The notes below the pieces were generated by a model. That model was not told where the DNA came from, searched no databases, and saw nothing but the letters and a program-made list of their open reading frames with translations. This document shows, piece by piece, positions 3,619 to 56,752 of a stretch of DNA of 64,000 nt. The position numbers and the translations under genes were made by a program. Source of the stretch: Terriglobia bacterium (GTDB taxonomy: Bacteria; Acidobacteriota; Terriglobia; JAIQFV01); assembly GCA_028716525.1 (NCBI GenBank), contig JAQUPQ010000007.1, positions 64,196 through 128,195 on the forward strand, given 5' to 3'. Within the stretch, counting starts at the first letter, position 1. Each line of letters opens with the position of its first letter.

Positions 3619-5178
3619 ATGTACATTTCGAACGAAACCCGCACCCGAACCGCCCAACGCCCCAACATCGTCAAACTCACTCAGCCATTGGATTTGGAAC
3701 GTCATCCCTTTGAAGACTACCTGAGCTCTCCTCTCACCCGAAAATTTCTCTTATGGGCGACCCGCCTCTCCAACGGGAGAACACGGCTGGAGAGGATTTT
3801 CACCTCGTATCGAAATCCCGAGGCGCCATGGTCCGACAAAATCAAATTTTTCCCGCTGCATAAGGTCATCGATTTCTTTGTGGCCAAAACCAAGGTCTCG
3901 CCGGAGCGGGCGGTGGAAAAGGTATTCCATCACATGCCGACCGTGCGGACGTTGGTTAATACGGCCCGCTCCGTTGGAACATTTGGACTGGTGGCCCCTC
4001 AACGTTTTATCGCTCCGCTGCTGGTGGTATGGAACATTACCAATCGCTGCAACCTCTCCTGCAAGCATTGTTATCAGGATGCCGTTCGCAGGCGCGGCCC
4101 CGAAGAACTGAACCGCAAAGAGAAAATAGATGTGGTGGACCAACTGGCGGACAACCTGGTCCCCATGATCGCTTTGGCCGGGGGCGAACCCTTGATCGAC
4201 CCCGATTTATGGTCGGTGCTGGAACGCGCTCAACAGCGCGGGATCTATGTCAGTCTGGCCACCAACGGAACGATGCTCACAAAGCAGATTTGCGAACGCC
4301 TCAAAAAGCTGGGCGTCAAGTACATGGAGATCTCGCTGGATTCGCTGGACGCCGGTGTCCATGACGATTTTCGCCAAATGCCCGGGGCCTGGGAGCTGTC
4401 GGTTCAAGGCATCAAAAATGTTCAGGCCTACGGAATGCGCGCCGGCATCGCGACCTGCTTCACGCGCGACACGGTCGATCAAGCGCCCCGCATGATCGGT
4501 TTTGCCAAATCTCTGAAGGTGAGCACCTTCGTTCATTTCAATTTCATTCCCGTGGGCCGAGGCGCCGACATGGCGCATGAAGACCTCACACCGGAGCAGC
4601 GCGAACGCCTGCTGCATCTGTTATACGAAACCCTGGAGGAGGGTGGCCTTGGGGTGATGTCGACGGCTCCTCAGTTCGGCCGCGCCTGCATGGCTTTCGG
4701 GGACCTCGACGGCATGATGGCCATGGGTCACGGCGGCTCGGGCAAGGGACGTCAGGCTCGCGTGGTGTCGAAGTACATCGGCGGCTGCGGAGCTCACCGC
4801 TGCTACTGCTCCATTCAGCCCAACGGAAAAGTGAATCCCTGCGTCTACATGCCCACGCGGACCATCGGCGACTTGAGGAAAACACCCTTTGCCGAAATCT
4901 GGAATCAACCGCTCGAAGCCATTCTCAGCGACCGCGAAGATCGGGGCGATCATTGCGGTGTGTGCGACTATCGCTCCTTCTGTGGGGGCTGCCGCGCCCG
5001 CGCCGAAAGCTACACCGGCGATGTTCAAGCGGGAGATCCCGGCTGCATCTATAATTCCCATATGTGGAACGAAATTGAACGTCGAGAGAAGGAGCACTTG
5101 AGCGTTCTGAATGAAGGCACCGCCCTGAAGATTGGCGTCGGCGGGCACACCGAGAGCTCTTCCAGCAGTCCGCAGTGA
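3619..5178 (+). CDS. radical SAM/SPASM-domain protein
   Basis: CNLSCKHCYQD radical SAM motif. C-terminal Cys-rich SPASM/twitch-like segment (GGCGAHRCYCSIQPNGKVNPCVYM, CGVCDYRSFCGGCRAR). Tandem with the previous rSAM gene. Confidence 0.8.
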   Translation: MYISNETRTRTAQRPNIVKLTQPLDLERHPFEDYLSSPLTRKFLLWATRLSNGRTRLERIFTSYRNPEAPWSDKIKFFPLHKVIDFFVAKTKVSPERAVEKVFHHMPTVRTLVNTARSVGTFGLVAPQRFIAPLLVVWNITNRCNLSCKHCYQDAVRRRGPEELNRKEKIDVVDQLADNLVPMIALAGGEPLIDPDLWSVLERAQQRGIYVSLATNGTMLTKQICERLKKLGVKYMEISLDSLDAGVHDDFRQMPGAWELSVQGIKNVQAYGMRAGIATCFTRDTVDQAPRMIGFAKSLKVSTFVHFNFIPVGRGADMAHEDLTPEQRERLLHLLYETLEEGGLGVMSTAPQFGRACMAFGDLDGMMAMGHGGSGKGRQARVVSKYIGGCGAHRCYCSIQPNGKVNPCVYMPTRTIGDLRKTPFAEIWNQPLEAILSDREDRGDHCGVCDYRSFCGGCRARAESYTGDVQAGDPGCIYNSHMWNEIERREKEHLSVLNEGTALKIGVGGHTESSSSSPQ

Positions 5179-27323: not shown

Positions 27324-27851
27324 ACAGATGACGCGCACAGCTCACGCCCTCTTTCAGCCCGAACCTGGGCCAGCGCATCGCGCTACCGGTGGTTCCTTTA
27401 TATACAGGACTCCAATCCCAAAAAGTGTCCAGCGCATCTTGATCCATCCTCACAAGAAATGTGAACTTGGTTTGTGTGTGTTTCATCGACCCCCTTGCGA
27501 GCTCCATTAGAAACGCCTGCGCATTAAAAAAATGAGCGGTCACAGCAGATGTGATGGTGGTGAAGGATCACCCGGCTTCGATCCTCCAACTCTTTTTCCG
27601 CGATAAACAATCCAACTCCATTCGGGCTGCACCCTTTTTCGGAACAGACATCGCGTTGCTTGCAATGTCTGTGTATGAGGGGTGAGCAGCCAATGGCTCC
27701 ACGAGGCGAAGGTCTTTCACTGAATGCGCATCCGATGGATCCCAGTGGGCCACCCGACCTGAATCCCTGTGCGGGCTGAGGGTGGTCAATTCTGAACAGA
27801 CATTAGAAGCGTTCTAAGGCAATCTTGGTGTTGATCGGTAGGAGTAAGCCA

Positions 27852-28262
27852 ATGTCGCGTTTGCAACCGCGTCTCTTAGTGGTCGATGACGAGCCCGCCA
27901 TGAGGGAAGTCGTATCCGATGTTTTGGCGTCGGAGGGTTACGAGGTTTTTACGGCGCAGGATGGCTTGGATGCATTAGATCGGTTGGTGCAACCCCTGCC
28001 TGACGTGATCATATCGGATTTGATAATGCCCCGGATGTCGGGGTTTGAGTTTTTGGCCGTCGTCCGCGAACGCTTTCCAAGTGTTCCCGTGATTGCCATA
28101 AGCGGGGAGTTCATGGGGAACCAGTTGCCGCCCGGGGTACTTGCAGACGCCTTTCTACCGAAAGGGGGTTTTACAACCGATCAGTTGTGCGGAAAGATTA
28201 ATGAACTGATGTCGGCGCCTCCCGTGAGACCGTCATCAGGTTCAATCGGCGTTGCGCACTGA
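27852..28262 (+). CDS. stand-alone response-regulator receiver domain protein (CheY-like)
   Basis: LLVVDDEPAMREV…DVIISDLIMPRMSGFEFL…VPVIAISG carries the conserved D/D/K receiver residues. No output domain. Confidence 0.75.
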   Translation: MSRLQPRLLVVDDEPAMREVVSDVLASEGYEVFTAQDGLDALDRLVQPLPDVIISDLIMPRMSGFEFLAVVRERFPSVPVIAISGEFMGNQLPPGVLADAFLPKGGFTTDQLCGKINELMSAPPVRPSSGSIGVAH

Positions 28263-29114: not shown

Positions 29115-29422
29115 CAGCTTCATGATCGATATATTTCGACGCAAACAACCCACAGAGAGATGACACACATCATTTTCTCCGGCATTCCCGCGTTGATGCT
29201 GCACGGAAGTACTCTCCATAAACTGGGATAAGCAATTCTGACCCGATACGTGAGCCCCACTGGGCTGACCCGTCACCCGAGGGGTCGATAATGATGGCAG
29301 TCGCCATCGTGAACTGGCCGCTTTAATCACCACGCACTTGGCGAACCATCAGACCTCTTCCAAGGTCGAACCCGAGCTGAACTTCATCTGTCCCACCCTG
29401 TATCTTCTCCGCGCCAACTCCA

Positions 29423-29497
29423 GTGAGCACTTTTGATCAAGCTGGTGAGCAGTACTGGGCTGACACGCAAATTCCCCTGGGGTATAAGAACTGTACC
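29423..29497 (+). promoter_or_regulatory. copy 1 of the conserved ~75-bp promoter module (boxes TGAGCAcTTTTGATCAA / GTGAGCAGTACTGGGC, -35 TGACACGC, -10 GGGTATAAGA)
   Basis: GTGAGCACTTTTGATCAAGCTGGTGAGCAGTACTGGGCTGACACGCAAATTCCCCTGGGGTATAAGAACTGTACC. Lies ~140 nt upstream of the Gln-rich repeat protein gene. Confidence 0.7.
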
Positions 29498-29639
29498 CCG
29501 AGATGCAGCCAGGACCCGGTGGGAGTCGGATGGCAAAAGACAAAGTGCTTATCTTTTCCATTCTCTCTACTGGGATCGTCGTGGCCTCTCTTTTGGGGTT
29601 ACATCCCATGGAACGACCGCATATCTAAGGAGGTGTGCA

Positions 29640-31217
29640 GTGAATCTCAATATCTTGAACCGAATGGTGGTGGCTGTCGTAATCAGCACGGTGTCGTTGG
29701 TGGGATGGACCATACCGACCAACGCCCAGCAACCACCGCAGGAAGAGCAACAACCGCAGAAAGACCAGAAACAGCAGAAAGACAAAAATAAGGAGCAACC
29801 GCCGGCGCAGCAACAACCGCGCGGCCAACAGCAGCCCCAGCAAGATCAAAGCAAACAACCACACCAACAACCTGCTGAACGGCAACAGCAACCGGACCAG
29901 AACAAACAGCAGCAAGAGCAAGATAAACAGCAGCAAAAGGCCCGGCAGCAGGATCAGCAGAATAAACAGCAGGAACAACGGATTCAGCAGCAACAACAGC
30001 GGGTCCAACAGCAGCAACAGCAGGATCAGCAGAACAAACAGCAACAGCAGCAACAACAACAGCAACAGCGCGTTCAGCAGCAGGATCAGCAGAACAAACA
30101 GCAGGAACAACGGATTCAGCAGCAGCAACAGCGGGTGCAACAGCAGCAACAACAACAGCGCGTTCAGCAGCAGGATCAGCAGAACAAACAGCAGGAACAA
30201 CGGATTCAGCAGCAGCAACAGCGGGTGCAACAGCAGCAACAACAACAGCAACAGCAAAAGGACCAGCAGAATAGAGAGCAGCAACAACGCGTTCAGCAGC
30301 AACAGGATCAGCAGAATAGACAGCAACAGCAGCGCGTCCAGCAGCAACAACAACAGCAGCAGCAAAAGGACCAGCAGAATAGAGAGCAGCAACAGCGCGT
30401 CCAGCAGCAACAGGATCAGCAGAATAAACAGCAACAGCAGCGCGTCCAACAGCAACAACAACAGCAGCAGCAAAAGGACCAGCAGAATAGAGAGCAGCAA
30501 CAACGCGTTCAGCAGCAACAGCAGCAGCAGGCTAAGCAACAACAATGGCAGCGGGACCAAAATTGGCAACAGCGCGTACAGCAACAACAACAGCAAGACC
30601 AGAATCAGCAGCAAGCACGCCTCTCGCAACAGCGTCAACAGCAGCTTATTACGGAGCAACAGCAGCGTCTCACTCAGTACCGGCAAAATTTAGATCAGCA
30701 GCAGAGTGTCTGGCAGCGGCAAACATCAAATCTTCAGCGACAAGGGCGCACGGCTCAATACCGTTTTCAGCAGCAATATTGGGACAACGTACGCCAGCAG
30801 CGATTTCGTCTCAATGATCGCCACGATTACGACAATGATCCATACTTCTATACGGCTTGGAACTATCGTTACAAGCGGGGCAACCGCTACTACGAGACGA
30901 ATCAATACGGGGCCAATTTGCTTCGGGAGGCCGTGAGCTACGGTTATGAGCAAGGCTTCCTGGCCGGACAGGCAGACCGGCAGGATCGCTGGCGTTATAA
31001 CTACCAGGCCTCCTATGCCTATCAAGACGCGAACTACGGCTATGACGGTTTTTATGTAGCCCAGGATGAATACAACTATTACTTTCGGCAGGGTTTCCGT
31101 CGCGGCTATGAAGATGGCTACTACAGCCGCTATCGATACGGCAGCTATTCGAGCGGGAAGTACACAATCCTTGGCGCCATTGTGGGGTCAATCCTCGATA
31201 TGCAAGCGCTTCGCTAA
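29640..31217 (+). CDS. secreted Gln-rich tandem-repeat protein with Tyr/Arg/Asp-rich C-terminal domain
   Basis: GTG start after TAAGGAGG. Signal peptide MVVAVVISTVSLVGWTIPTNAQQ. About 380 aa of QQDQQNKQQEQRIQQQQQRVQQQQQQ-type repeats. C-terminal …YGYEQGFLAGQADRQDRWRYNYQASYAYQDANYGYDGFY… ends in hydrophobic TILGAIVGSIL. Confidence 0.7.
   Translation: MNLNILNRMVVAVVISTVSLVGWTIPTNAQQPPQEEQQPQKDQKQQKDKNKEQPPAQQQPRGQQQPQQDQSKQPHQQPAERQQQPDQNKQQQEQDKQQQKARQQDQQNKQQEQRIQQQQQRVQQQQQQDQQNKQQQQQQQQQQRVQQQDQQNKQQEQRIQQQQQRVQQQQQQQRVQQQDQQNKQQEQRIQQQQQRVQQQQQQQQQQKDQQNREQQQRVQQQQDQQNRQQQQRVQQQQQQQQQKDQQNREQQQRVQQQQDQQNKQQQQRVQQQQQQQQQKDQQNREQQQRVQQQQQQQAKQQQWQRDQNWQQRVQQQQQQDQNQQQARLSQQRQQQLITEQQQRLTQYRQNLDQQQSVWQRQTSNLQRQGRTAQYRFQQQYWDNVRQQRFRLNDRHDYDNDPYFYTAWNYRYKRGNRYYETNQYGANLLREAVSYGYEQGFLAGQADRQDRWRYNYQASYAYQDANYGYDGFYVAQDEYNYYFRQGFRRGYEDGYYSRYRYGSYSSGKYTILGAIVGSILDMQALR
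29945..30540 (+). repeat. near-perfect tandem DNA repeats (about three 90-nt units followed by about three 108-nt units) inside the Gln-rich gene
   Basis: Identical blocks occur at 30071 and 30161 (cgttcagcagcaggatcagcagaacaaacagcaggaacaacggattcagcagcagcaacagcgggtgcaacag…). Further blocks sit at 30254, 30362 and 30470 (agcaaaaggaccagcagaatagagagcagcaaca…). Confidence 0.8.
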
Positions 31218-31434: not shown

Positions 31435-31507
31435 CTGAGCAACTTTGACCAACTTAGTGAGCCGTACGGAACCGACACGCGCTTCGCCTTCGGATATACA
31501 CATGATG
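31435..31507 (+). promoter_or_regulatory. copy 4 of the conserved promoter module (variant -10 GGATATACA)
   Basis: CTGAGCAACTTTGACCAACTTAGTGAGCCGTACGGAACCGACACGCGCTTCGCCTTCGGATATACACATGATG. An extra TGAGCAG lies ~25 nt further upstream. It precedes the RcnB-like gene. Confidence 0.65.
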
Positions 31508-31588
31508 TAACGTTGATTCGCTGAGATGTACGCCTACATGAACTCAGGATTTCAAAACGGAAAACTCAATATGACTTGGAGAAAACTT

Positions 31589-32020
31589 ATGAAGACACGA
31601 TGGTGGATGACTGCTTGTGCGACGGCGCTGCTGGCATTGATGTGCAGCGCAGCTGTAGCACAAGACCGGAATGACCATGACAATGACCGGAATCGCGGCC
31701 AGAGTAAGAAGGCGTATCGCCAGTTCAACGAGAATCAACGCCAATACGCGCGCACGTATTACGAGCAGCACCATGACCAGGGCCTCTTTCGACAGGACAA
31801 CCGATGGAACGACGACTACGAAAGCCGGATTCATCCGGGCTACGTGCTCGATAGAGATATGCGCAGGCTGAGTCGGCCGGCACCCTATGATTTGACGCGA
31901 GGTTTGGGCCGTCCTCCTCGCGGCTACCGTTACGTCGTCATCGGCGGACATGTGGTTCTGGTTGACAATGCGTATCGCGTTCATGACGCAATTCACTTTG
32001 AGATTAACGTTGGACATTGA
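31589..32020 (+). CDS. secreted RcnB-like protein
   Basis: Signal MKTRWWMTACATALLALMCSAAVAQD. C-terminal …LSRPAPYDLTRGLGRPPRGYRYVVIGGHVVLVDNAYRVHDAI resembles the RcnB/YohN family signature. Confidence 0.5.
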   Translation: MKTRWWMTACATALLALMCSAAVAQDRNDHDNDRNRGQSKKAYRQFNENQRQYARTYYEQHHDQGLFRQDNRWNDDYESRIHPGYVLDRDMRRLSRPAPYDLTRGLGRPPRGYRYVVIGGHVVLVDNAYRVHDAIHFEINVGH

Positions 32021-32163
32021 CGTAGAAGAGATCCGCTTCCTCACGATGGCTGGCGGCGCGGAATTTACCCAGTACAGAAAGCTGAGATTCTGCGAGCCAA
32101 GTCGTTGTCGTCGCCTCTACGTCACTTGGTAAATATTTCGACAGGGCATTACAAGGAGCAACC

Positions 32164-32346
32164 GTGATGAAGCCAAGCACCAAAAATAAGGCTGAAGGCA
32201 AGTTTCACGAAATGAAGGGCAAGGTCAAGGTGAAAGCAGGACAACTGACGCATAACCCCGATTTGGAAGCCGAGGGCTCAGTTGAAAAGGTGGCCGGGAA
32301 GATTCAAGGAATCATCGGCCGGGTGGAGAAAGCAATCCAACAATAA
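32164..32346 (+). CDS. CsbD-family general stress protein
   Basis: MMKPSTKNKAEGKFHEMKGKVKVKAGQLTHNPDLEAEGSVEKVAGKIQGIIGRVEKAIQQ matches the CsbD KxxGKxKExxGxxT…LEAEG pattern. Confidence 0.75.
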   Translation: MMKPSTKNKAEGKFHEMKGKVKVKAGQLTHNPDLEAEGSVEKVAGKIQGIIGRVEKAIQQ

Positions 32347-32433
32347 CAACACCGGCTCGTAGTCCTAAATAGTTCGTCAAGGGAACTGCGGACACGCCGG
32401 TCAGTGAGTGTAAGTACAAAAAAGGAGCTTAAA

Positions 32434-33123
32434 ATGAAAAGACTTAGTCTGATTTTTCTGTTGTTGACTTTCTGTACAACGTTATTTGCCGGTGAAAGCC
32501 AACTTCAAAAGGCAACCAACGTTGTGAACGAGATCATGGGGACTCCCGACAAAGGTATTCCTGATGAGTTGCTGGAAAGGGCTGTGTGTGTCGGCATCGT
32601 TCCTTCGCAGGTGAAGTTCGCCTTTGGAGTTGGTGGCACTTATGGACGCGGTGTGCTGGTGTGCCGCAAGGGAGGAAACGGGGCGTGGAATGCCCCGTCC
32701 ATGTTCACCCTGGGCGCCGCGAGTGTGGGATTTCAGATCGGCGGTAAGGCAACCGACGTCGTCTTCCTCGTGATGAATCCTGAAGGTATGAAGAAACTGG
32801 TTCAGGACAGCGTCAAACTGGGCGCCGAATTATCCGTAGCGGCCGGCCCGGTGGGTCGTTCCGCCGAAGGCGCCACTGACGCCCAACTCCATGCTGAGAT
32901 TCTCAGCTACTCCCGGACCCGGGGATTGTTTGCCGGGGCCTCGCTCGATGGGGCCGTGGTCAAGCAAGATAGGGAAGACAACGAGAAGCTCTATGGACGC
33001 AAGGTGACCGCGAAAGAAATTCTGATCGACGGCACGGTGCGCGCTCCTCGGGCTGCTCGGGGCTTGAACAGCACACTGACCAAGCACTCCCCCAAGGGTG
33101 GACAAACGTTCGCCCGATTGTAA
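32434..33123 (+). CDS. SYLF (Ysc84-like) lipid-binding domain protein, secreted
   Basis: Signal peptide MKRLSLIFLLLTFCTTLFAG. Core …GIVPSQVKFAFGVGGTYGRGVLVCRKGGNGAWNAPSMFTLGAASVGFQIGG… is typical of the SYLF/DUF500 domain. Confidence 0.65.
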   Translation: MKRLSLIFLLLTFCTTLFAGESQLQKATNVVNEIMGTPDKGIPDELLERAVCVGIVPSQVKFAFGVGGTYGRGVLVCRKGGNGAWNAPSMFTLGAASVGFQIGGKATDVVFLVMNPEGMKKLVQDSVKLGAELSVAAGPVGRSAEGATDAQLHAEILSYSRTRGLFAGASLDGAVVKQDREDNEKLYGRKVTAKEILIDGTVRAPRAARGLNSTLTKHSPKGGQTFARL

Positions 33124-36477: not shown

Positions 36478-36912
36478 ATGACAACGACAAAACTGCTGTT
36501 CATATCGATTTTCGCATTATTGCTAACGAGCTTTTACGGTGCGCCACTGCAAGCCCAAAACGCCATGCAAAGTTCCGGCATGGACATGAAGAACATGAAA
36601 TCAGAGATGGAGCAGATGCGTGCGCAGATGGAACAGATACAGACCCTGATGAAGGACACCATGGCCAAAATGGCGGCCGCCGATGCCGCCATGAAGAGCC
36701 ACATGGAAACGGAACAGGCCAGCATGAAGAGTCAGATGGAACTGCAGCAGGCCATGATTAACCATCTACAAACTATGACGGATCACATGCAGACTCACAT
36801 GCAGATGATGACTGACCGCATGGCCATGAAGCCGGATCCCATGGATGTTCACAAGAAAAGCGGGGCGACGAAGCAGAAAGATAAAAAGATGATGGATGAT
36901 CAGAAGAAATGA
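36478..36912 (+). CDS. secreted methionine-rich coiled-coil-like protein (MrpX-like candidate oxidant sink or metal binder)
   Basis: Signal peptide. About 25 Met in 144 aa with 3/4-residue spacing (MDMKNMKSEMEQMRAQMEQIQTLMKDTMAKM…HMQTHMQMMTDRMAM). Lys-rich tail. Confidence 0.6.
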   Translation: MTTTKLLFISIFALLLTSFYGAPLQAQNAMQSSGMDMKNMKSEMEQMRAQMEQIQTLMKDTMAKMAAADAAMKSHMETEQASMKSQMELQQAMINHLQTMTDHMQTHMQMMTDRMAMKPDPMDVHKKSGATKQKDKKMMDDQKK

Positions 36913-37041: not shown

Positions 37042-37117
37042 CTGAGCAGTTTTGACCGAACCGGCGAGCCGTATTGGACTGACACGCGAATTGGCCAAGG
37101 GTATAAGAGGTGTAGCC
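37042..37117 (+). promoter_or_regulatory. copy 2 of the conserved promoter module
   Basis: CTGAGCAGTTTTGACCGAACCGGCGAGCCGTATTGGACTGACACGCGAATTGGCCAAGGGTATAAGAGGTGTAGCC. Lies 57 nt upstream of the DUF3309 gene. Confidence 0.7.
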
Positions 37118-38450: not shown

Positions 38451-38579
38451 TTCTATGTTTGATTGCTGTACCCTCGTCCGGAAAGATGTGGCTTTTCTGA
38501 GGGAGGCGTTGGGAAGTTGTCAAAACCAGATTACTCTTGCGATGACCGGTCGGTTTTGTGCAAGCATACGGAGGTTGTT

Positions 38580-39239
38580 ATGGCCCATCAGAAAAGTCAG
38601 CCGGCCGATTGGTCAGTCTTCTTGGCTGGGTTCCCCAGCGAGAAAACCGCTATCCAGTACGGCGCGAACCGCACGATCTTCTCGGAAGGAGAACCCGCGA
38701 ATTCCGTCTTTTACCTTCGAAAAGGCAAGGTGGATCTCGGCGTGACATCGAAGCATGGAAAAGCAGCGATCCTCGCCCATGTGGGCCCCGGTGAGTTCTT
38801 CGGCGAAGGATGTCTCGCCGGCCAGCGATTGCGCATCGCCACGGCTACCACGATGACCCATTGCAAGCTGGTCAGGATTGCCAAGCCGCTGATGGCGCGC
38901 CTGCTCCACGAACAACACGGTTTCTCGGAATTGTTCCTCACGCATCTGCTTTCACGCAACATCCGATCCAAAGTGGATCTCGTCGATCAGCTCTTCAACT
39001 CCACCCAGAAGCGTCTGGCTCGGACTCTCTTGCTGCTGGCTCATTTTGGCAAGGAGAGCCGGGCCGAAAGTGTACATCCCAGAATCAATCAGGAAGACCT
39101 GGCGCGAATGGTCGGCATATCTCGGTTGCGGATCAGTAATTTCATGAAGAAGTTCAAGAAGCTGGGCTATGTCGATTACACCGGCAGCGGTGGGTTGACG
39201 GTTCGTAGTGGCCTTTTGAGCGTGATCCTGCACGACTAG
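38580..39239 (+). CDS. Crp/Fnr family transcriptional regulator (paralog A)
   Basis: cNMP-binding-like beta-roll (…FYLRKGKVDLGVTSKHGKAAILAHVGPGEFFGEGCLAG…). C-terminal HTH EDLARMVGISRLRISNFMKKFKKLGYVDY. No N-terminal Cys cluster. Confidence 0.8.
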   Translation: MAHQKSQPADWSVFLAGFPSEKTAIQYGANRTIFSEGEPANSVFYLRKGKVDLGVTSKHGKAAILAHVGPGEFFGEGCLAGQRLRIATATTMTHCKLVRIAKPLMARLLHEQHGFSELFLTHLLSRNIRSKVDLVDQLFNSTQKRLARTLLLLAHFGKESRAESVHPRINQEDLARMVGISRLRISNFMKKFKKLGYVDYTGSGGLTVRSGLLSVILHD

Positions 39240-40311: not shown

Positions 40312-40386
40312 CTAAATTCGGGGCACTTCTTTTATAACCCCGGATAAATTGGATGTCAGTCCAGTAGCGCTCACACGTTTGGTCAG
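40312..40386 (-). promoter_or_regulatory. copy 5 of the conserved promoter module (minus strand)
   Basis: Reverse complement reads ATGAGCATTTCTGACCAAACGTGTGAGCGCTACTGGACTGACATCCAATTTATCCGGGGTTATAAAAGAAGTGCC. Lies ~65 nt upstream of the YflT-like gene start at 40247. Confidence 0.65.
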
Positions 40387-40688
40387 AAATGCTCATCGCC
40401 TTTAATCGGCGCAAATACGCGGCGGCTTCCCGTGCCGAGGCTGGTTGACAGAACCTGCGACAGCAGTTCCCAAGCACCCCACCGGACTCACCAACCTGCT
40501 CCATGGAAAGAAAAATCGGTGTGAGGAATCAATCGAGTGTTTCGATGATAATTTGCAGAGGCTTTGAGGAACAAAAGAGAACCAAAACACTTTTTGGCGG
40601 CTGGAGGTCTCTTGAAGGTGGCGTTGTTCACCGATGGTCTTTCTCGGGATCAGGCAGGCGGCGGAGCCGGTAAAAAATTCACAAACCG

Positions 40689-42112: not shown

Positions 42113-42268
42113 ATGTCAAAAACGAAAAAACCGAAAACTCATTTTCAGCAGGTTCCGCTGGAGATAGTCAAAGTTATCGCTGAACAAGAAATTCCGGACG
42201 ATAAATTGATGGGAAACAACGTGACCGTGAAACCTCCTCAAAAGAGGAAGAGCAGAAGGCTGTCATGA
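42113..42268 (+). CDS. small basic hypothetical protein (possible leader ORF)
   Basis: MSKTKKPKTHFQQVPLEIVKVIAEQEIPDDKLMGNNVTVKPPQKRKSRRLS. Its stop overlaps the start of the Crp/Fnr gene. Confidence 0.25.
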   Translation: MSKTKKPKTHFQQVPLEIVKVIAEQEIPDDKLMGNNVTVKPPQKRKSRRLS

Positions 42269-43026
42269 TGAGCAAACGAATTTCTATCGGAAGATCCTCC
42301 TTCAGCAAGCAGGGGGATGCTGTTACGGCGCGCAACAAAAAAAGGAAACCCGAGGTTATCACGGCAAATCAGAAGAACCAGTCTGTCGATTGGGAAGCCC
42401 TCCTTGCTGGAATCAACGGAGGGAAAACCGTGCTTGAATACACCGCAAACCGCATCATCTACCGGCAGGGAGATCCTGCGGATTCCGTTTTTTATCTCCG
42501 ACGAGGCAAGGTGAAGCTGACGGTGACATCCCAGGAGGGCAAGGAAGCGATCGTCGCCATTCTGGGCGCCGGTGAGTTCTTCGGCGAGGGATGTCTTGCA
42601 GGCCAACTGTTGCGCGTTTCAACGGTTGTCGCGATGAGCGATTGCTCTTTTGCCCGGATTGAAAAGCCGCGGATGGCGCGCATGCTCCACGAGCAGCACG
42701 ACATTTCGGAATTGTTCGTCACGCACCTGCTTTCACGCAACATCCGCTATGAAGAGGATCTGGTCGACCAGCTTTTCAACTCCAGCGAGAAACGCCTGGC
42801 CCGGATTCTTTTGCTGCTGGCTCATTTTGGCAAGGAAGGCCGATCCGAAGCTGTCGTTCCCAGAATCAATCAGGAAAACTTGGCACAAATGGTGGGCACC
42901 ACGCGTTCGCGGGTCAGTCATTTCATGAACAAGTTCCGAAAGCTTGGCTTTGTCGATTACGACGGCCCTACCGGCGGCGGGTTGATGGTCCATAGTGGTC
43001 TCCTCAGCGTGATCTTGCAAGACTAG
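42265..43026 (+). CDS. Crp/Fnr family transcriptional regulator (paralog B, with Lys/Arg-rich N-terminal extension)
   Basis: Alignable along its whole length with the 38580 gene (shared runs GEFFGEGCLAGQ, SELF(L/V)THLLSRNIR, LLLLAHFGKE, HTH …RSRVSHFMNKFRKLGFVDY). Carries a ~35-aa basic N-extension. Confidence 0.8.
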   Translation: MMSKRISIGRSSFSKQGDAVTARNKKRKPEVITANQKNQSVDWEALLAGINGGKTVLEYTANRIIYRQGDPADSVFYLRRGKVKLTVTSQEGKEAIVAILGAGEFFGEGCLAGQLLRVSTVVAMSDCSFARIEKPRMARMLHEQHDISELFVTHLLSRNIRYEEDLVDQLFNSSEKRLARILLLLAHFGKEGRSEAVVPRINQENLAQMVGTTRSRVSHFMNKFRKLGFVDYDGPTGGGLMVHSGLLSVILQD

Positions 43027-43262: not shown

Positions 43263-43337
43263 ATGAGCAATTTTGACCAAACGTATGAGCAGGACTGAAC
43301 TGACCCCGAACGGCTTCCAGGGTATAAGAAATGCACC
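43263..43337 (+). promoter_or_regulatory. copy 3 of the conserved promoter module
   Basis: ATGAGCAATTTTGACCAAACGTATGAGCAGGACTGAACTGACCCCGAACGGCTTCCAGGGTATAAGAAATGCACC. Followed by a ~360-nt leader before the PLC-like gene. Confidence 0.65.
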
Positions 43338-53788: not shown

Positions 53789-54598
53789 CTACTTCTTGTG
53801 GCGCTTTGGTTTTAGGAACACAGCGGCTGCGCGTTCCAGGACGCGGAAGGCGAACGACTCGGTCAGGTAGAGGTAGACCTTATGTTTGTCGTGACCCTCG
53901 TATCCGATCGACAGATCCTGTCCCACGCTGAGCTGAAAGTCGCCCCCGCGATGCGAGAGCAGCACGGCGCCATCGACCTTTGGCGCCAGAACCATCGGCC
54001 CGTCAAGGAAGTGCTCGACGCGCTCACGGATCGGGTAGCCATCCTGCGCGGCCTGGGCCAAACCCGCATAACAGTTCGGTCCAAGCGCCAAGGCATAGGG
54101 TCCATTGATGCCCGCGCGCCGCAGCGTCTCGACGGCGTCCACCACGACGGACGGATAGTCCGCATAATCGTCCGGGATGGCAATGGCCGGATGCAAGGTC
54201 GTAGGGATGATACCCTCAATGCCTCCGGCTTTGAAGCCGTTGAAGATGGCGTTGTCCTCGGCATGCGCTGTCTTCTCCGCGGCACTTACCACCGCTGGAA
54301 GGTCCAGCACAGCGCCGCGCGATGCGTTGTCGAGTTCCATGATTGACAGCTCGAACGGCACTCGCACCTCGATCAAAGGCGCCACCTCGCGCACGCCCCA
54401 CGGCACGCCAAGGTCGCCGTCGGTTCGGATGGTCAGGTGGCCCGTGTTGACCGAGGCATACCTCCACCCGTGCGGGCCGTCGAAATCAACCAGCTTGCGT
54501 CCCGCCAGGTTGAGCTGGAGCACCCGCTTGGCTTCGTCGTCGATTTGCTTCCAGGCTTCGGGCGTAATCGGCGCATGATCGCGCTTCAATAGATCCAT
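53789..54598 (-). CDS. family 1 encapsulin nanocompartment shell protein (Linocin M18-like)
   Basis: MDLLKRDHAPITPEAWKQIDDEAKRVLQLNLAGRKLVDFDGPHGWRYASVNTGHL… is typical of the HK97-fold encapsulin N-terminus. 269 aa. Confidence 0.85.
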   Translation of the reverse strand: MDLLKRDHAPITPEAWKQIDDEAKRVLQLNLAGRKLVDFDGPHGWRYASVNTGHLTIRTDGDLGVPWGVREVAPLIEVRVPFELSIMELDNASRGAVLDLPAVVSAAEKTAHAEDNAIFNGFKAGGIEGIIPTTLHPAIAIPDDYADYPSVVVDAVETLRRAGINGPYALALGPNCYAGLAQAAQDGYPIRERVEHFLDGPMVLAPKVDGAVLLSHRGGDFQLSVGQDLSIGYEGHDKHKVYLYLTESFAFRVLERAAAVFLKPKRHKK

Positions 54599-54601
54599 GT
54601 C

Positions 54602-54964
54602 TCACTTTCCTTTCATGCTGGCGATGCCGAGTGTCTCGGTGGCCACGGGGGCAGGGCCGTCGGTTCCTGCGCCCTTCTCAATTCCAGCGATCGGCTGCTC
54701 GGTGAACAGGTACTTGTGCATCATCTCGTTGAAGTGGTCGCTGTGACGGCGGATCCACTCCATAAGCATCGTGGCGTGCTCAATCTCTTCGTTCTTGTTG
54801 TGCAGCAGCACGTCCTTCAACTGCGGATCGGAACACGCGTCGGCGCGTTGCTGATACCAGTCGATCGCCTCCAGCTCCTCCATCAGGCTGACGATCGCGC
54901 GGTGCATATTGCGCGTGTCCTCGGGCAGGAGATCGAGCGATTCGTGGTACGCGGTACTTGCCAT
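54602..54964 (-). CDS. encapsulated ferritin-like cargo protein (EncFtn) with C-terminal encapsulin targeting peptide
   Basis: Ferritin-like EExxH motifs (…MEELEAIDWYQQRA…NKNEEIEHATMLMEWI…). C-terminal …TETLGIASMKGK matches the SLGIGSLKG-type cargo-loading peptide. It lies 3 nt upstream of the shell gene. Confidence 0.8.
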   Translation of the reverse strand: MASTAYHESLDLLPEDTRNMHRAIVSLMEELEAIDWYQQRADACSDPQLKDVLLHNKNEEIEHATMLMEWIRRHSDHFNEMMHKYLFTEQPIAGIEKGAGTDGPAPVATETLGIASMKGK

Positions 54965-55141
54965 ATGATTATTCCTCTTACGCTTGCCGACGCACCGGGA
55001 CCGGTGCATCGAAGCTATGAATCTCGACCGGTTAGACCGCCTCCAGCGCGAGGTCTTTCTCAAGGCTCTATTCGCTTGGAGGAACGCGTTGCTCATCCCC
55101 CGACACGCGCCTCGCACCAGATCCTCGCGGAGAGCTCGTAA

Positions 55142-55213
55142 GACACTTCTTATACCTTGGGGATAGTGCGCGTCAGTTCAAAACTGTTCACGTGCATGAT
55201 CAAGATTGCTCAT
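55142..55213 (-). promoter_or_regulatory. copy 6 of the conserved promoter module (minus strand), upstream of the EncFtn-encapsulin operon
   Basis: Reverse complement reads ATGAGCAATCTTGATCATGCACGTGAACAGTTTTGAACTGACGCGCACTATCCCCAAGGTATAAGAAGTGTC. Lies ~180 nt upstream of the EncFtn start. Confidence 0.65.
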
Positions 55214-56674: not shown

Positions 56675-56752
56675 GCGTGCATGTCCTTTATATCCACGGG
56701 CGAAGCGCGTGTCGGTTCAGTACTGCTCACACACCTGGTCAACATTGCTCAG
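56675..56752 (-). promoter_or_regulatory. copy 7 of the conserved promoter module (minus strand; variant closest to copy 4), upstream of the DUF5329-SOD operon
   Basis: Reverse complement reads CTGAGCAATGTTGACCAGGTGTGTGAGCAGTACTGAACCGACACGCGCTTCGCCCGTGGATATAAAGGACATGCACGC. It shares the 16-mer CGACACGCGCTTCGCC and downstream ATTCGCTGAG with copy 4. Confidence 0.65.

Follow-up and report, generated by a model that had tools for sequence, protein, structure and literature searches.

Sequence analysis places a glutamine-rich, tandem-repeat protein of a Terriglobia bacterium within a large unnamed Acidobacteriota family

We analysed a 64,000-nucleotide (nt) stretch of contig JAQUPQ010000007.1 (the window; positions 64,196 to 128,195, assembly GCA_028716525.1) from a Terriglobia bacterium of the Acidobacteriota, in which a gene at 29640-31217 encodes an extremely Gln-rich protein. 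On sequence evidence, this protein belongs, as a typical member in the upper range, to a large unnamed Acidobacteriota family, and the tandem repeats that make it striking are ordinary for that family. The original prediction, made from the letters alone, had called the protein extraordinary and assigned it to no family, whereas searches with its C-terminal domain gave a very large unnamed family of 722 clusters at 50% identity. What is new is the family itself, for which neither a model, nor literature, nor a fold match was found, together with a promoter element, rather than the repeats of the window gene. As an explanation of the protein we tentatively favour, at a level somewhat short of probable, a stress-regulated envelope protein in which a variable hydrophilic helical spacer is joined to a conserved C-terminal module.

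The extent of the family was established by searches of proteins, genomes and metagenomes. The C-terminal 205 amino acids (aa) retrieved 1760 proteins, the best 120 of the 1760 being 60-83% identical; nearly all were labelled hypothetical, and those with organism names came from metagenome-assembled genomes (MAGs) of Acidobacteriota/Terriglobia. JGI auto-annotation had named some family members FliH. The 722 clusters were obtained with a profile of 22 members from 1.84 billion representatives, 195 of them at E<1e-30, and in full-length profile matches the domain lay at or near the C-terminus. Scanning one genome per species gave at least 571 confirmed loci, mostly in Terriglobia, Blastocatellia and unclassified Acidobacteriota MAGs, with two copies in some genomes and a few bins labelled Deltaproteobacteria, Gammaproteobacteria or Verrucomicrobia, and a metagenome scan confirmed 585 contigs, the habitats of the family being chiefly soil, peat and sediment. 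The signature motifs of the family (DPYFYT, YYETNQYGA, GYExGFxAGxADRxDRW and YNYYFRxGFxRGYEDGY, with a terminal ILGxxLxxIL..Q.LR) are all present and aligned in the window protein. Its layout, a signal peptide followed by a polar low-complexity linker of variable length, is that of the 59 genome homologues with an intact N-terminus.

We regard the open reading frame (ORF) itself as a real gene. It runs from a GTG at 29640 to a stop codon at 31215-31217 (+), is preceded by a strong Shine-Dalgarno (SD) sequence, leads into the conserved domain, and specifies 525 aa, including 215 Gln (41%), 17/525 Gly (3.2%) and no Cys. The SD, AAGGAGG, lies at 29627-29633, 6 nt 5' of the GTG, and both SD and start codon are invariant across 23 aligned orthologue and paralogue leaders (the window and loci among L001-L022, L056, L066 and L078). 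Only the Gln-rich gene itself, and no paralogue, was found by tblastn of the window. An antisense Leu-rich ORF of 353 aa (29625-30686, -) is the complement of the CAG/CAA run and has no support; it is the forward frame that runs on into the conserved domain.

The family is defined by the C-terminal part of the protein, where a conserved helical hairpin (residues 330-391; 30627-30812, +; RLSQQRQQQLI..QQQRLTQYRQ.LDQQQ ... AQYRFQQQY), with heptad-like Leu/Ile/Tyr spacing, is followed by a Tyr/Arg/Asp/Gly-rich alpha/beta domain (residues 392-525 and the stop codon; 30813-31217, +; pLDDT 80-97). The original prediction had already set this domain apart, together with its hydrophobic tail, and both the distinct domain and a conserved hydrophobic G-x3-G tail are borne out here. 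The last 134 aa contain 20% Tyr and 10% Gly, and the alignment of 22 sequences has 46 invariant columns in the C-terminal domain. In the AlphaFold2 (AF2) model of the C-terminal 205 aa (pLDDT 81, pTM 0.83), the predicted order is a helical hairpin, a beta-hairpin, the GYEQGFLAG helix, the GFRRGYEDG helix, a second beta-hairpin, and a hydrophobic C-terminal helix and strand. Residues 392-525 thus comprise two beta-hairpins, two G-x3-G-x3-G helices (GYEQGFLAG and GFRRGYEDG) and the conserved C-terminal ILGAIVGSILDMQALR. On this model the hydrophobic tail would belong to the fold instead of anchoring the protein in a membrane.

No structural match to the model of this domain was found by Foldseek in PDB or BFVD, and Pfam and NCBIfam scans of the whole protein, its C-terminal part and 22 relatives gave nothing above threshold. 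The sole matches of a PDB sequence profile search, to Erlin-1 helices (E 0.2-0.35), were dismissed as coiled-coil noise, and TolA, VirB10, TrlF and Exonuc_VII_L were set aside as low-complexity noise in the family scans. Besides these, Yae1_N (PF09811) matched 4/22 relatives weakly, far below threshold and over no more than the motif (best E 0.015), and the window protein not at all. Like the deca-GX3 repeat of Yae1/Lto1 and the GxxxG repeat of FliH/YscL, the domain has G-x3-G-x3-G helices, here two of them and flanked by Tyr/Glu/Asp; unlike those proteins it carries two three-glycine repeats and not ten, and it appears to be exported whereas they are cytoplasmic. The likeness to Yae1_N and GX3 proteins is one of motif and not of homology. 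In the mechanism we propose, the specific activity of the protein would reside in the C-terminal ~200 residues, which would most likely dock to an envelope component or self-associate by way of the two glycine-zipper helices and a Tyr/Arg surface.

The same features could be accommodated by a self-assembling extracellular or matrix protein, in which Gln helices or polar zippers and the Tyr-rich domain build fibres, a gel or a surface layer, with possible cross-links via Tyr or Gln/Lys, and serve as biofilm matrix or in water retention. Very high conservation across almost all of the C-terminal domain surface is what a tightly packed homo-oligomer would lead one to expect, Tyr makes up 20% of the domain, Gln and Lys abound in the linker, and the two glycine-zipper helices, with their weak Yae1_N similarity, are of the helix-association type. 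However, no secretion or cross-linking genes were found in a survey of the four neighbours on either side, no evidence points to secretion past the periplasm, and a charge at every 5-7 positions, as read from the sequence, disfavours amyloid-type polyQ aggregation; we consider a matrix role quite unlikely.

Ahead of the domain, the Gln-rich stretch is built from recently duplicated, in-frame DNA units, in agreement with the recent expansion originally proposed. Tandem Repeats Finder and an offset scan delimited an exact tandem duplication of a 90-nt unit at 30063-30249 (+), in which 97 nt are identical at an offset of 90 (30063-30159 = 30153-30249), and an older related copy of 75 nt (29945-30019) that is 96% identical and lies at offsets of 132 and 222 nt from the exact copies, not 90. 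By the same means, a 108-nt (36-aa) unit was found in 2.9 copies at 30231-30544 (+; 93% matches, no indels), copies 1 and 2 being 96.3% identical and copy 3 diverging beyond ~75 nt. All repeat copies are in frame, with a few substitutions among them. The near-identical 90- and 108-nt units that had been described are therefore present, but the supposed three copies of the 90-nt unit resolve into two exact copies plus the 75-nt copy outside the 90-nt register, and the 108-nt unit falls slightly short of three. Likewise, the ~380 residues attributed to the Gln-rich part were an overestimate, as we measured ~290 (residues 30-320) plus the conserved hairpin with 38% Q.

Composition does not account for these repeats. 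Against a longest exact repeat of 97 nt, 300 codon shuffles of the linker gave a mean of 20.5 nt and a maximum of 36 nt, and because the shuffles never exceeded 36 nt the repeats are duplications and no by-product of composition. The Gln codons are interleaved (133 CAG and 82 CAA, the longest pure CAG run being 4 codons), which rules out triplet slippage as the mechanism and indicates that length changes through recombination or slippage between long units. In the proposed mechanism, the stalk would lengthen or shorten when in-frame units, here of 90 and 108 nt, recombine unequally or slip during replication. The closest relatives recovered were 84% identical (best metagenome match) and 80-83% identical (best in a set of 5.8 billion proteins), with no same-species allele among them.

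Comparison across the family gave indirect support to the idea that repeat number varies. Between orthologues whose C-terminal domains are 95-97% identical, length differs by 47-187 aa, and within one 90%-identity cluster a 292-aa form and a ~374-aa mature form differ only in extra Q-repeat units. Linker length across the 59 genome homologues whose N-terminus is intact is 31-317 aa (median 167; 300 in the window protein), the Q fraction is 0.14-0.66, and the best repeat period depends on lineage (10, 13, 14, 15, 16, 17, 28, 30, 35 or 36 aa). In-frame arrays with a period of at least 24 nt occur in 62/81 family genes, 29 of them with at least 90% matches, and unit sizes range family-wide from 24 to 177 nt. 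The window array ranks 18th by score among the 81 genes, stronger examples being found at L038 (48 nt x 16), L051 (90 nt x 6.9) and L042 (45 nt x 9.8). In distant members the linker is R/E/Q/D-rich or P/R/E-rich in place of Gln. Given that sequence, period and length all vary, selection would act on polarity and perhaps on helicity, and the repeats of the window gene appear to represent the normal way in which this family evolves.

In many long-read MAG loci labelled 'noSP' (L004, L008, L013, L025, L031, L032, L035, L043, L052, L054, L055 and others), the gene is frameshifted within the Q-repeats, after which the frame reads Ser/Thr/Ala/Arg-rich nonsense. These frameshifts are most likely consensus errors in the repeats, and as a result gene calls are often short, with many 'proteins' of 156-207 aa beginning at an internal Met.

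It might be asked whether the window gene is itself an assembly artefact, or a non-expressed ORF produced by a CAG/CAA-rich low-complexity stretch. Assemblies easily collapse or expand tandem repeats, many homologues in Nanopore MAGs are frameshifted within the repeat, and the largest length difference among orthologues has an Illumina assembly (L034) as its short partner, its long-read relative (L047) being much longer. Yet the frame is intact from the conserved SD and start codon, through repeat copies that stay in frame with a few substitutions, into a domain found in hundreds of genomes, and the arrays of the family include those of long-read assemblies. We judge this account highly improbable overall: it is essentially excluded for the gene itself, though not for the exact number of repeats.

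The mature protein would consist of four parts, namely a disordered Pro/Lys/Gln tail, the Gln-rich stalk, the helical hairpin and the Tyr/Arg/Gly-rich alpha/beta domain. The N-terminal tail (residues 30-84; 29727-29891, +) is 45% Q and 16% Pro and is predicted to be disordered (pLDDT ~33-35). The repeat stalk (residues 85-320; 29892-30599, +) is ~65% Q (66% in residues 85-238 and 65% in 258-320), 22% charged and devoid of Gly, and is predicted to be alpha-helical. In the full-length AF2 model, residues 1-84 are of low confidence, residues 85-238 form an uninterrupted helix with pLDDT >90, and after a break at 239-257 a second helix covers 258-320 at pLDDT 55-76. Each repeat unit places an acid four positions ahead of a base, giving 12 D/E(i)-K/R(i+4) pairs in the stalk (z = 6.7), and family-wide the acid-to-base pairs at i+3 and i+4 are enriched, the reverse order not. 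Poly-Gln tracts can form helices held by side-chain to main-chain hydrogen bonds (PMC6497633). On the strength of the AF2 helix, the acid-to-base pattern and these published Gln-tract helices, the choice between helix and disorder leans to helix for the stalk. The Gln-rich part may accordingly be viewed as a hydrophilic spacer, probably alpha-helical, whose composition is constrained and whose length can vary.

Structure prediction, which had been suggested as a means of deciding between a coiled coil or single alpha-helix (SAH) and disorder, did return the long helix at 85-238, but it left residues 30-84 disordered, and the stalk departs from the ER/K type of SAH. Hydrophobic residues make up only 7-10% of the stalk, its Val/Ile spacings include 7, 15 and 21, and repeat periods in the family are not locked to multiples of 7. 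ER/K SAHs are marked by a very high density of Glu, Lys and Arg, opposite charges lying at i/i+4 over tens of residues. As in those helices, a very long helix is predicted that lacks a hydrophobic seam and has acid-to-base i+4 pairs, and the E/R/Q-rich linkers of distant members are more SAH-like still. Unlike them, the stalk is ~65% Gln with a charged fraction of 0.22, its i+4 pairs are present yet sparse, and any stabilization would come largely from Gln side chains, as the androgen-receptor polyQ helix exemplifies (PMC6497633), in place of dense E-K/R networks. The resemblance to SAH proteins once suggested thus does not extend to membership in the classical ER/K class, only 22% of linker residues being charged.

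A related proposal was that the protein resembles late embryogenesis abundant (LEA) proteins or hydrophilins, in which case the disordered Gln region would itself be active, as a shield, in water replacement or by gelling on desiccation, and the C-terminal domain would localize or multimerize it. Hydrophilins are defined by more than 6% Gly plus high hydrophilicity. The window protein shares with both groups its very hydrophilic, repeat-built sequence, a predicted helical propensity and a stress-gene context (CsbD, YflT-like and DUF3309 neighbours lie behind a common promoter element); its linker keeps a polar character only, and neither sequence nor period, which is typical for disordered protectants, and residues 30-84 are predicted to be disordered. 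LEA proteins and hydrophilins are, however, rich in Lys/Glu/Ala/Thr/Gly, whereas this protein is dominated by Gln, is apparently exported and is best conserved in a folded C-terminal domain, so that the conserved and hence selected part is that domain rather than the linker. No LEA or other Pfam family was matched at E <= 1 by the whole protein or the C-terminal part, nor did any NCBIfam model match; the repeats, with units of 30 and 36 aa in this protein and 10-36 aa among relatives, are not of the LEA 11-mer type; and Gly, at 3.2% overall and 0% in residues 85-320, falls below the hydrophilin level in spite of the high hydrophilicity. Moreover, the AF2 model and the i+3/i+4 salt-bridge pattern point to helix, and some linkers in the family are just ~30-70 aa long. 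Membership in either group is thus not supported, and an LEA- or hydrophilin-like mode of action appears unlikely, although the protein may still act as a protectant or spacer while falling outside the LEA, hydrophilin and SAH classes.

Export to the periplasm or envelope through Sec is the next step of the mechanism that we favour for this family, whose members come mainly from Acidobacteriota of soil, peat and sediment. By inspection, the protein begins with a Sec-type signal peptide at residues 1-29 (29640-29726, +, including the GTG start codon), as the original prediction had held for this Gln-rich protein. Signals for signal peptidase I have a basic n-region, a hydrophobic core of 7-15 residues and small residues at -3 and -1; the N-terminus here, MNLNILNRMVVAVVISTVSLVGWTIPTNA|QQ, has a basic n-region with R8, a 15-residue hydrophobic core (MVVAVVISTVSLVGW) and then a T-N-A|Q site, after which cleavage is predicted. 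In homologues the small-x-small motif is retained immediately ahead of the Q-rich part. Lipoprotein sorting is ruled out, since the protein contains no Cys anywhere and thus no lipobox Cys, and PEP-CTERM sorting, which calls for a PEP motif, a transmembrane segment and an Arg cluster, finds no match in the C-terminus SGKYTILGAIVGSILDMQALR, where the PEP motif is absent and only ~10 hydrophobic residues and a single Arg are present.

Were the N-terminus to remain uncleaved, the protein could instead be an inner-membrane-anchored tether that spans the periplasm, with its C-terminal domain bound to peptidoglycan or the outer membrane in the topology of FtsN/DamX, TolA or TonB. The order of a hydrophobic N-terminus, a long polar linker and a conserved C-terminal domain fits such tethers, weak low-complexity matches to TolA and VirB10 models were seen, and the predicted helix (up to ~35 nm if continuous) is on the order of the periplasmic width, for which a general background figure was used. 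A Gln-rich linker and a SPOR domain have been reported for FtsN (PMC7939390). As in E. coli FtsN/DamX, a long, low-complexity, Gln-rich envelope segment that is less conserved precedes a small conserved C-terminal domain; FtsN and DamX, however, are bitopic in the inner membrane, which they cross by a true transmembrane helix, and carry a peptidoglycan-binding SPOR domain, whereas the window protein has an apparently cleavable signal peptide, a C-terminal domain that matches neither SPOR nor any other Pfam family, and a linker derived from recent tandem DNA repeats. A small-x-small motif after a hydrophobic core of just 15 residues is what marks a substrate of signal peptidase I, linkers varying from 31 to 317 aa are difficult to square with the bridging of a fixed distance, and Pfam scans detected no SPOR, OmpA, LysM or other peptidoglycan-binding domain. 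These observations make a membrane-anchored tether very unlikely.

Upstream of the gene, transcription would start from a sigma-70-like promoter preceded by a direct-repeat operator that is common to oxidative and general stress genes. BLAST and an alignment of 6 copies identified a 41-nt element with the core TGAGCAnnnTTGAyC-N7-TGArCnG-N4-GnnCyGAC, which occurs 8 times in the window and in none of 100 shuffles. The copy nearest the gene (29424-29488, +), with TGAGCA-containing direct repeats at 29424 and 29447, 23 bp apart, lies in a 525-nt gap upstream of the gene, 216 nt 5' of the start codon, and continues into a -35-like CTGACA (29460-29465), a 17-nt spacer and a -10-like TATAAG (29483-29488). 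In element copies the TATAAG sits 16-17 nt past the CTGACA. A degenerate copy at 29229-29292 (+), with 3 mismatches to the pattern, is followed by CTGACC-16 nt-GATAAT, and no ORF intervenes before the next element. The window pattern scan located the cores at 29229-29269(+), 29424-29464(+), 31436-31476(+), 37043-37083(+), 40355-40395(-), 43264-43304(+), 55172-55212(-) and 56711-56751(-). Across 80 related loci (891 kb) there were 63 copies, as compared with 0 in shuffled sequence, and in 22 orthologue and paralogue genes the element stands 210-221 nt ahead of the start codon. Its features suggest that it serves as operator and promoter in a regulon specific to this lineage.

The other six elements of the window precede genes for an RcnB-like protein (followed by CsbD and Ysc84/SYLF), a DUF3309 protein, a YflT-like protein, a zinc phospholipase C-like protein, encapsulated ferritin (EncFtn) with encapsulin, and a DUF5329 protein with an Fe/Mn superoxide dismutase. 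The stress-gene neighbourhood that had been pointed out for the Gln-rich gene is thereby supported, and the CsbD gene also has the element, at -247, in three related loci (L001, L002 and L016). CsbD, YflT-like and DUF3309 small stress proteins have the promoter-like element and the neighbourhood in common with the Gln-rich protein in this lineage; unlike it, they are small and repeat-free, and no sequence relationship links them to it. From this gene content, we infer that the gene may belong to an oxidative or general-stress regulon of this Terriglobia lineage.

Between the element and the start codon lies a putative 5' leader of ~140-150 nt (29490-29639, +), which contains the SD and is conserved in length and sequence, with a mean column identity of 75% among the 23 aligned leaders. 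RNAalifold on these 23 leaders gave 7 pairs with 0 compensatory changes, and Rfam returned no family at threshold in the leader, its two sub-threshold chance matches falling within the coding region; in the light of these results a structured leader or riboswitch was dropped. Nor was an upstream ORF accepted: it is hydrophobic, 25-32 codons long and ends in a TAA overlapping the SD, and although it is intact in the window (MAKDKVLIFSILSTGIVVASLLGLHPMERPHI) and in L006, L013 and L021, it is so in only ~5-7/23 leaders, its start or frame being lost elsewhere.

Taken together, these steps would lead to a protein that cells produce when stressed and that acts in the periplasm or envelope as a hydrated spacer or shield. 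Several points weigh against this explanation. Export and cleavage are judged from inspection of the N-terminus, and after cleavage the mature N-terminus would be free, leaving a 'spacer' that has no obvious attachment at that end. The break at 239-257 in the AF2 model falls within a repeat whose other copies are modelled as helical, and AF2 tends toward long helices in polar low-complexity sequence. The element is limited to one Terriglobia sub-lineage (25/80 loci), so stress regulation cannot be generalized to the family, and the stress response itself is read from gene content. When the four neighbours on each side were clustered in 81 loci, no conserved partner occurred in more than 17/81 loci and none at a fixed position, so that no neighbour hints at a ligand, and a dedicated operon was rejected on these grounds. 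A literature search found nothing relevant on Gln-rich exported proteins in Acidobacteria and no experimental data for the family.

A bolder version of the envelope-spacer explanation, which we hold to be doubtful and about on a par with the matrix role, would make the family a stress-induced, exported 'polar-helix' class. A Tyr/Arg/glycine-zipper domain of new fold would dock or oligomerize in the periplasm, a Gln-stabilized helix tens of nm long would form a protective hydrated brush or gel, and stalk length would be tuned fast and heritably by repeat recombination. If true, such a brush or reversible gel would shield the envelope during drying or oxidative stress, and no earlier case of bacteria putting a long polyGln-type helix to functional use outside the cytoplasm would precede it.

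Few bacteria are as abundant in soil as Acidobacteriota, and most of their lineage-specific proteins have no known role. The family described here is widespread and has a strongly conserved end domain, yet it is absent from Pfam and NCBIfam, and it seems, in at least one Terriglobia lineage, to be part of a putative stress regulon that also includes superoxide dismutase and encapsulated ferritin. Defining it would provide a new domain model for annotation, a natural graded-length series of Gln-rich helices for studying polyGln behaviour outside eukaryotic transcription factors, and, for a phylum in which genetic tools are scarce, a promoter/operator motif with which to map a stress regulon. 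The single window gene is by comparison a modest result, its striking repeats being normal for the family, and nothing in it overturns current understanding.

Other genes of the window and of related loci are of note for their position. Downstream of the Gln-rich gene and on the same strand, 31526-33123 (+) encodes the RcnB-like exported protein, CsbD and the Ysc84/SYLF protein. Within 6 kb of family members, Ysc84 was found in 23/80 loci and CsbD in 12/80, a loose association with no operon; in the survey of neighbouring genes, Crp/Fnr genes occurred in 17/81 loci and Ysc84 in 13-23 of ~80. Candidate regulators in the window comprise a response regulator (27825-28262) and two Crp/Fnr proteins (38463-39239 and 42265-43026). 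The encapsulin gene pair (53789-55117, -) consists of a family 1 encapsulin (Linocin_M18, E 1.5e-87) and an upstream EncFtn-like cargo gene (E 6e-39), behind an element. The same stress neighbourhood contains another low-complexity exported protein, of 144 aa (36478-36912, +), which is extremely Met/Gln-rich (MQSSGMDMKNMKSEMEQMRAQMEQIQTLMKDTMAKM...) and matches no Pfam family.

Four loci of the closest relatives carry a tandem paralogue directly upstream of the orthologue (L001:4098-4937, L002:~4090-4944, L003:~4038-4784 and L013:~4113-4880, all +). Its element, leader, signal peptide and Gln-rich linker are alike, but its C-terminal domain is another one, Trp/Tyr-rich (...YWSDNWYDNDDVYIDYSNGGYYLHNRRHPG...) and unmatched in Pfam. 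This paralogue is missing from the window, where the 5' flank (29288-29841) fits the 5' region of the paralogue (L002 and L003) better than that of the orthologue and the degenerate element at 29229 is followed by no ORF, suggesting a possible recombination or deletion between the two Q-rich genes.

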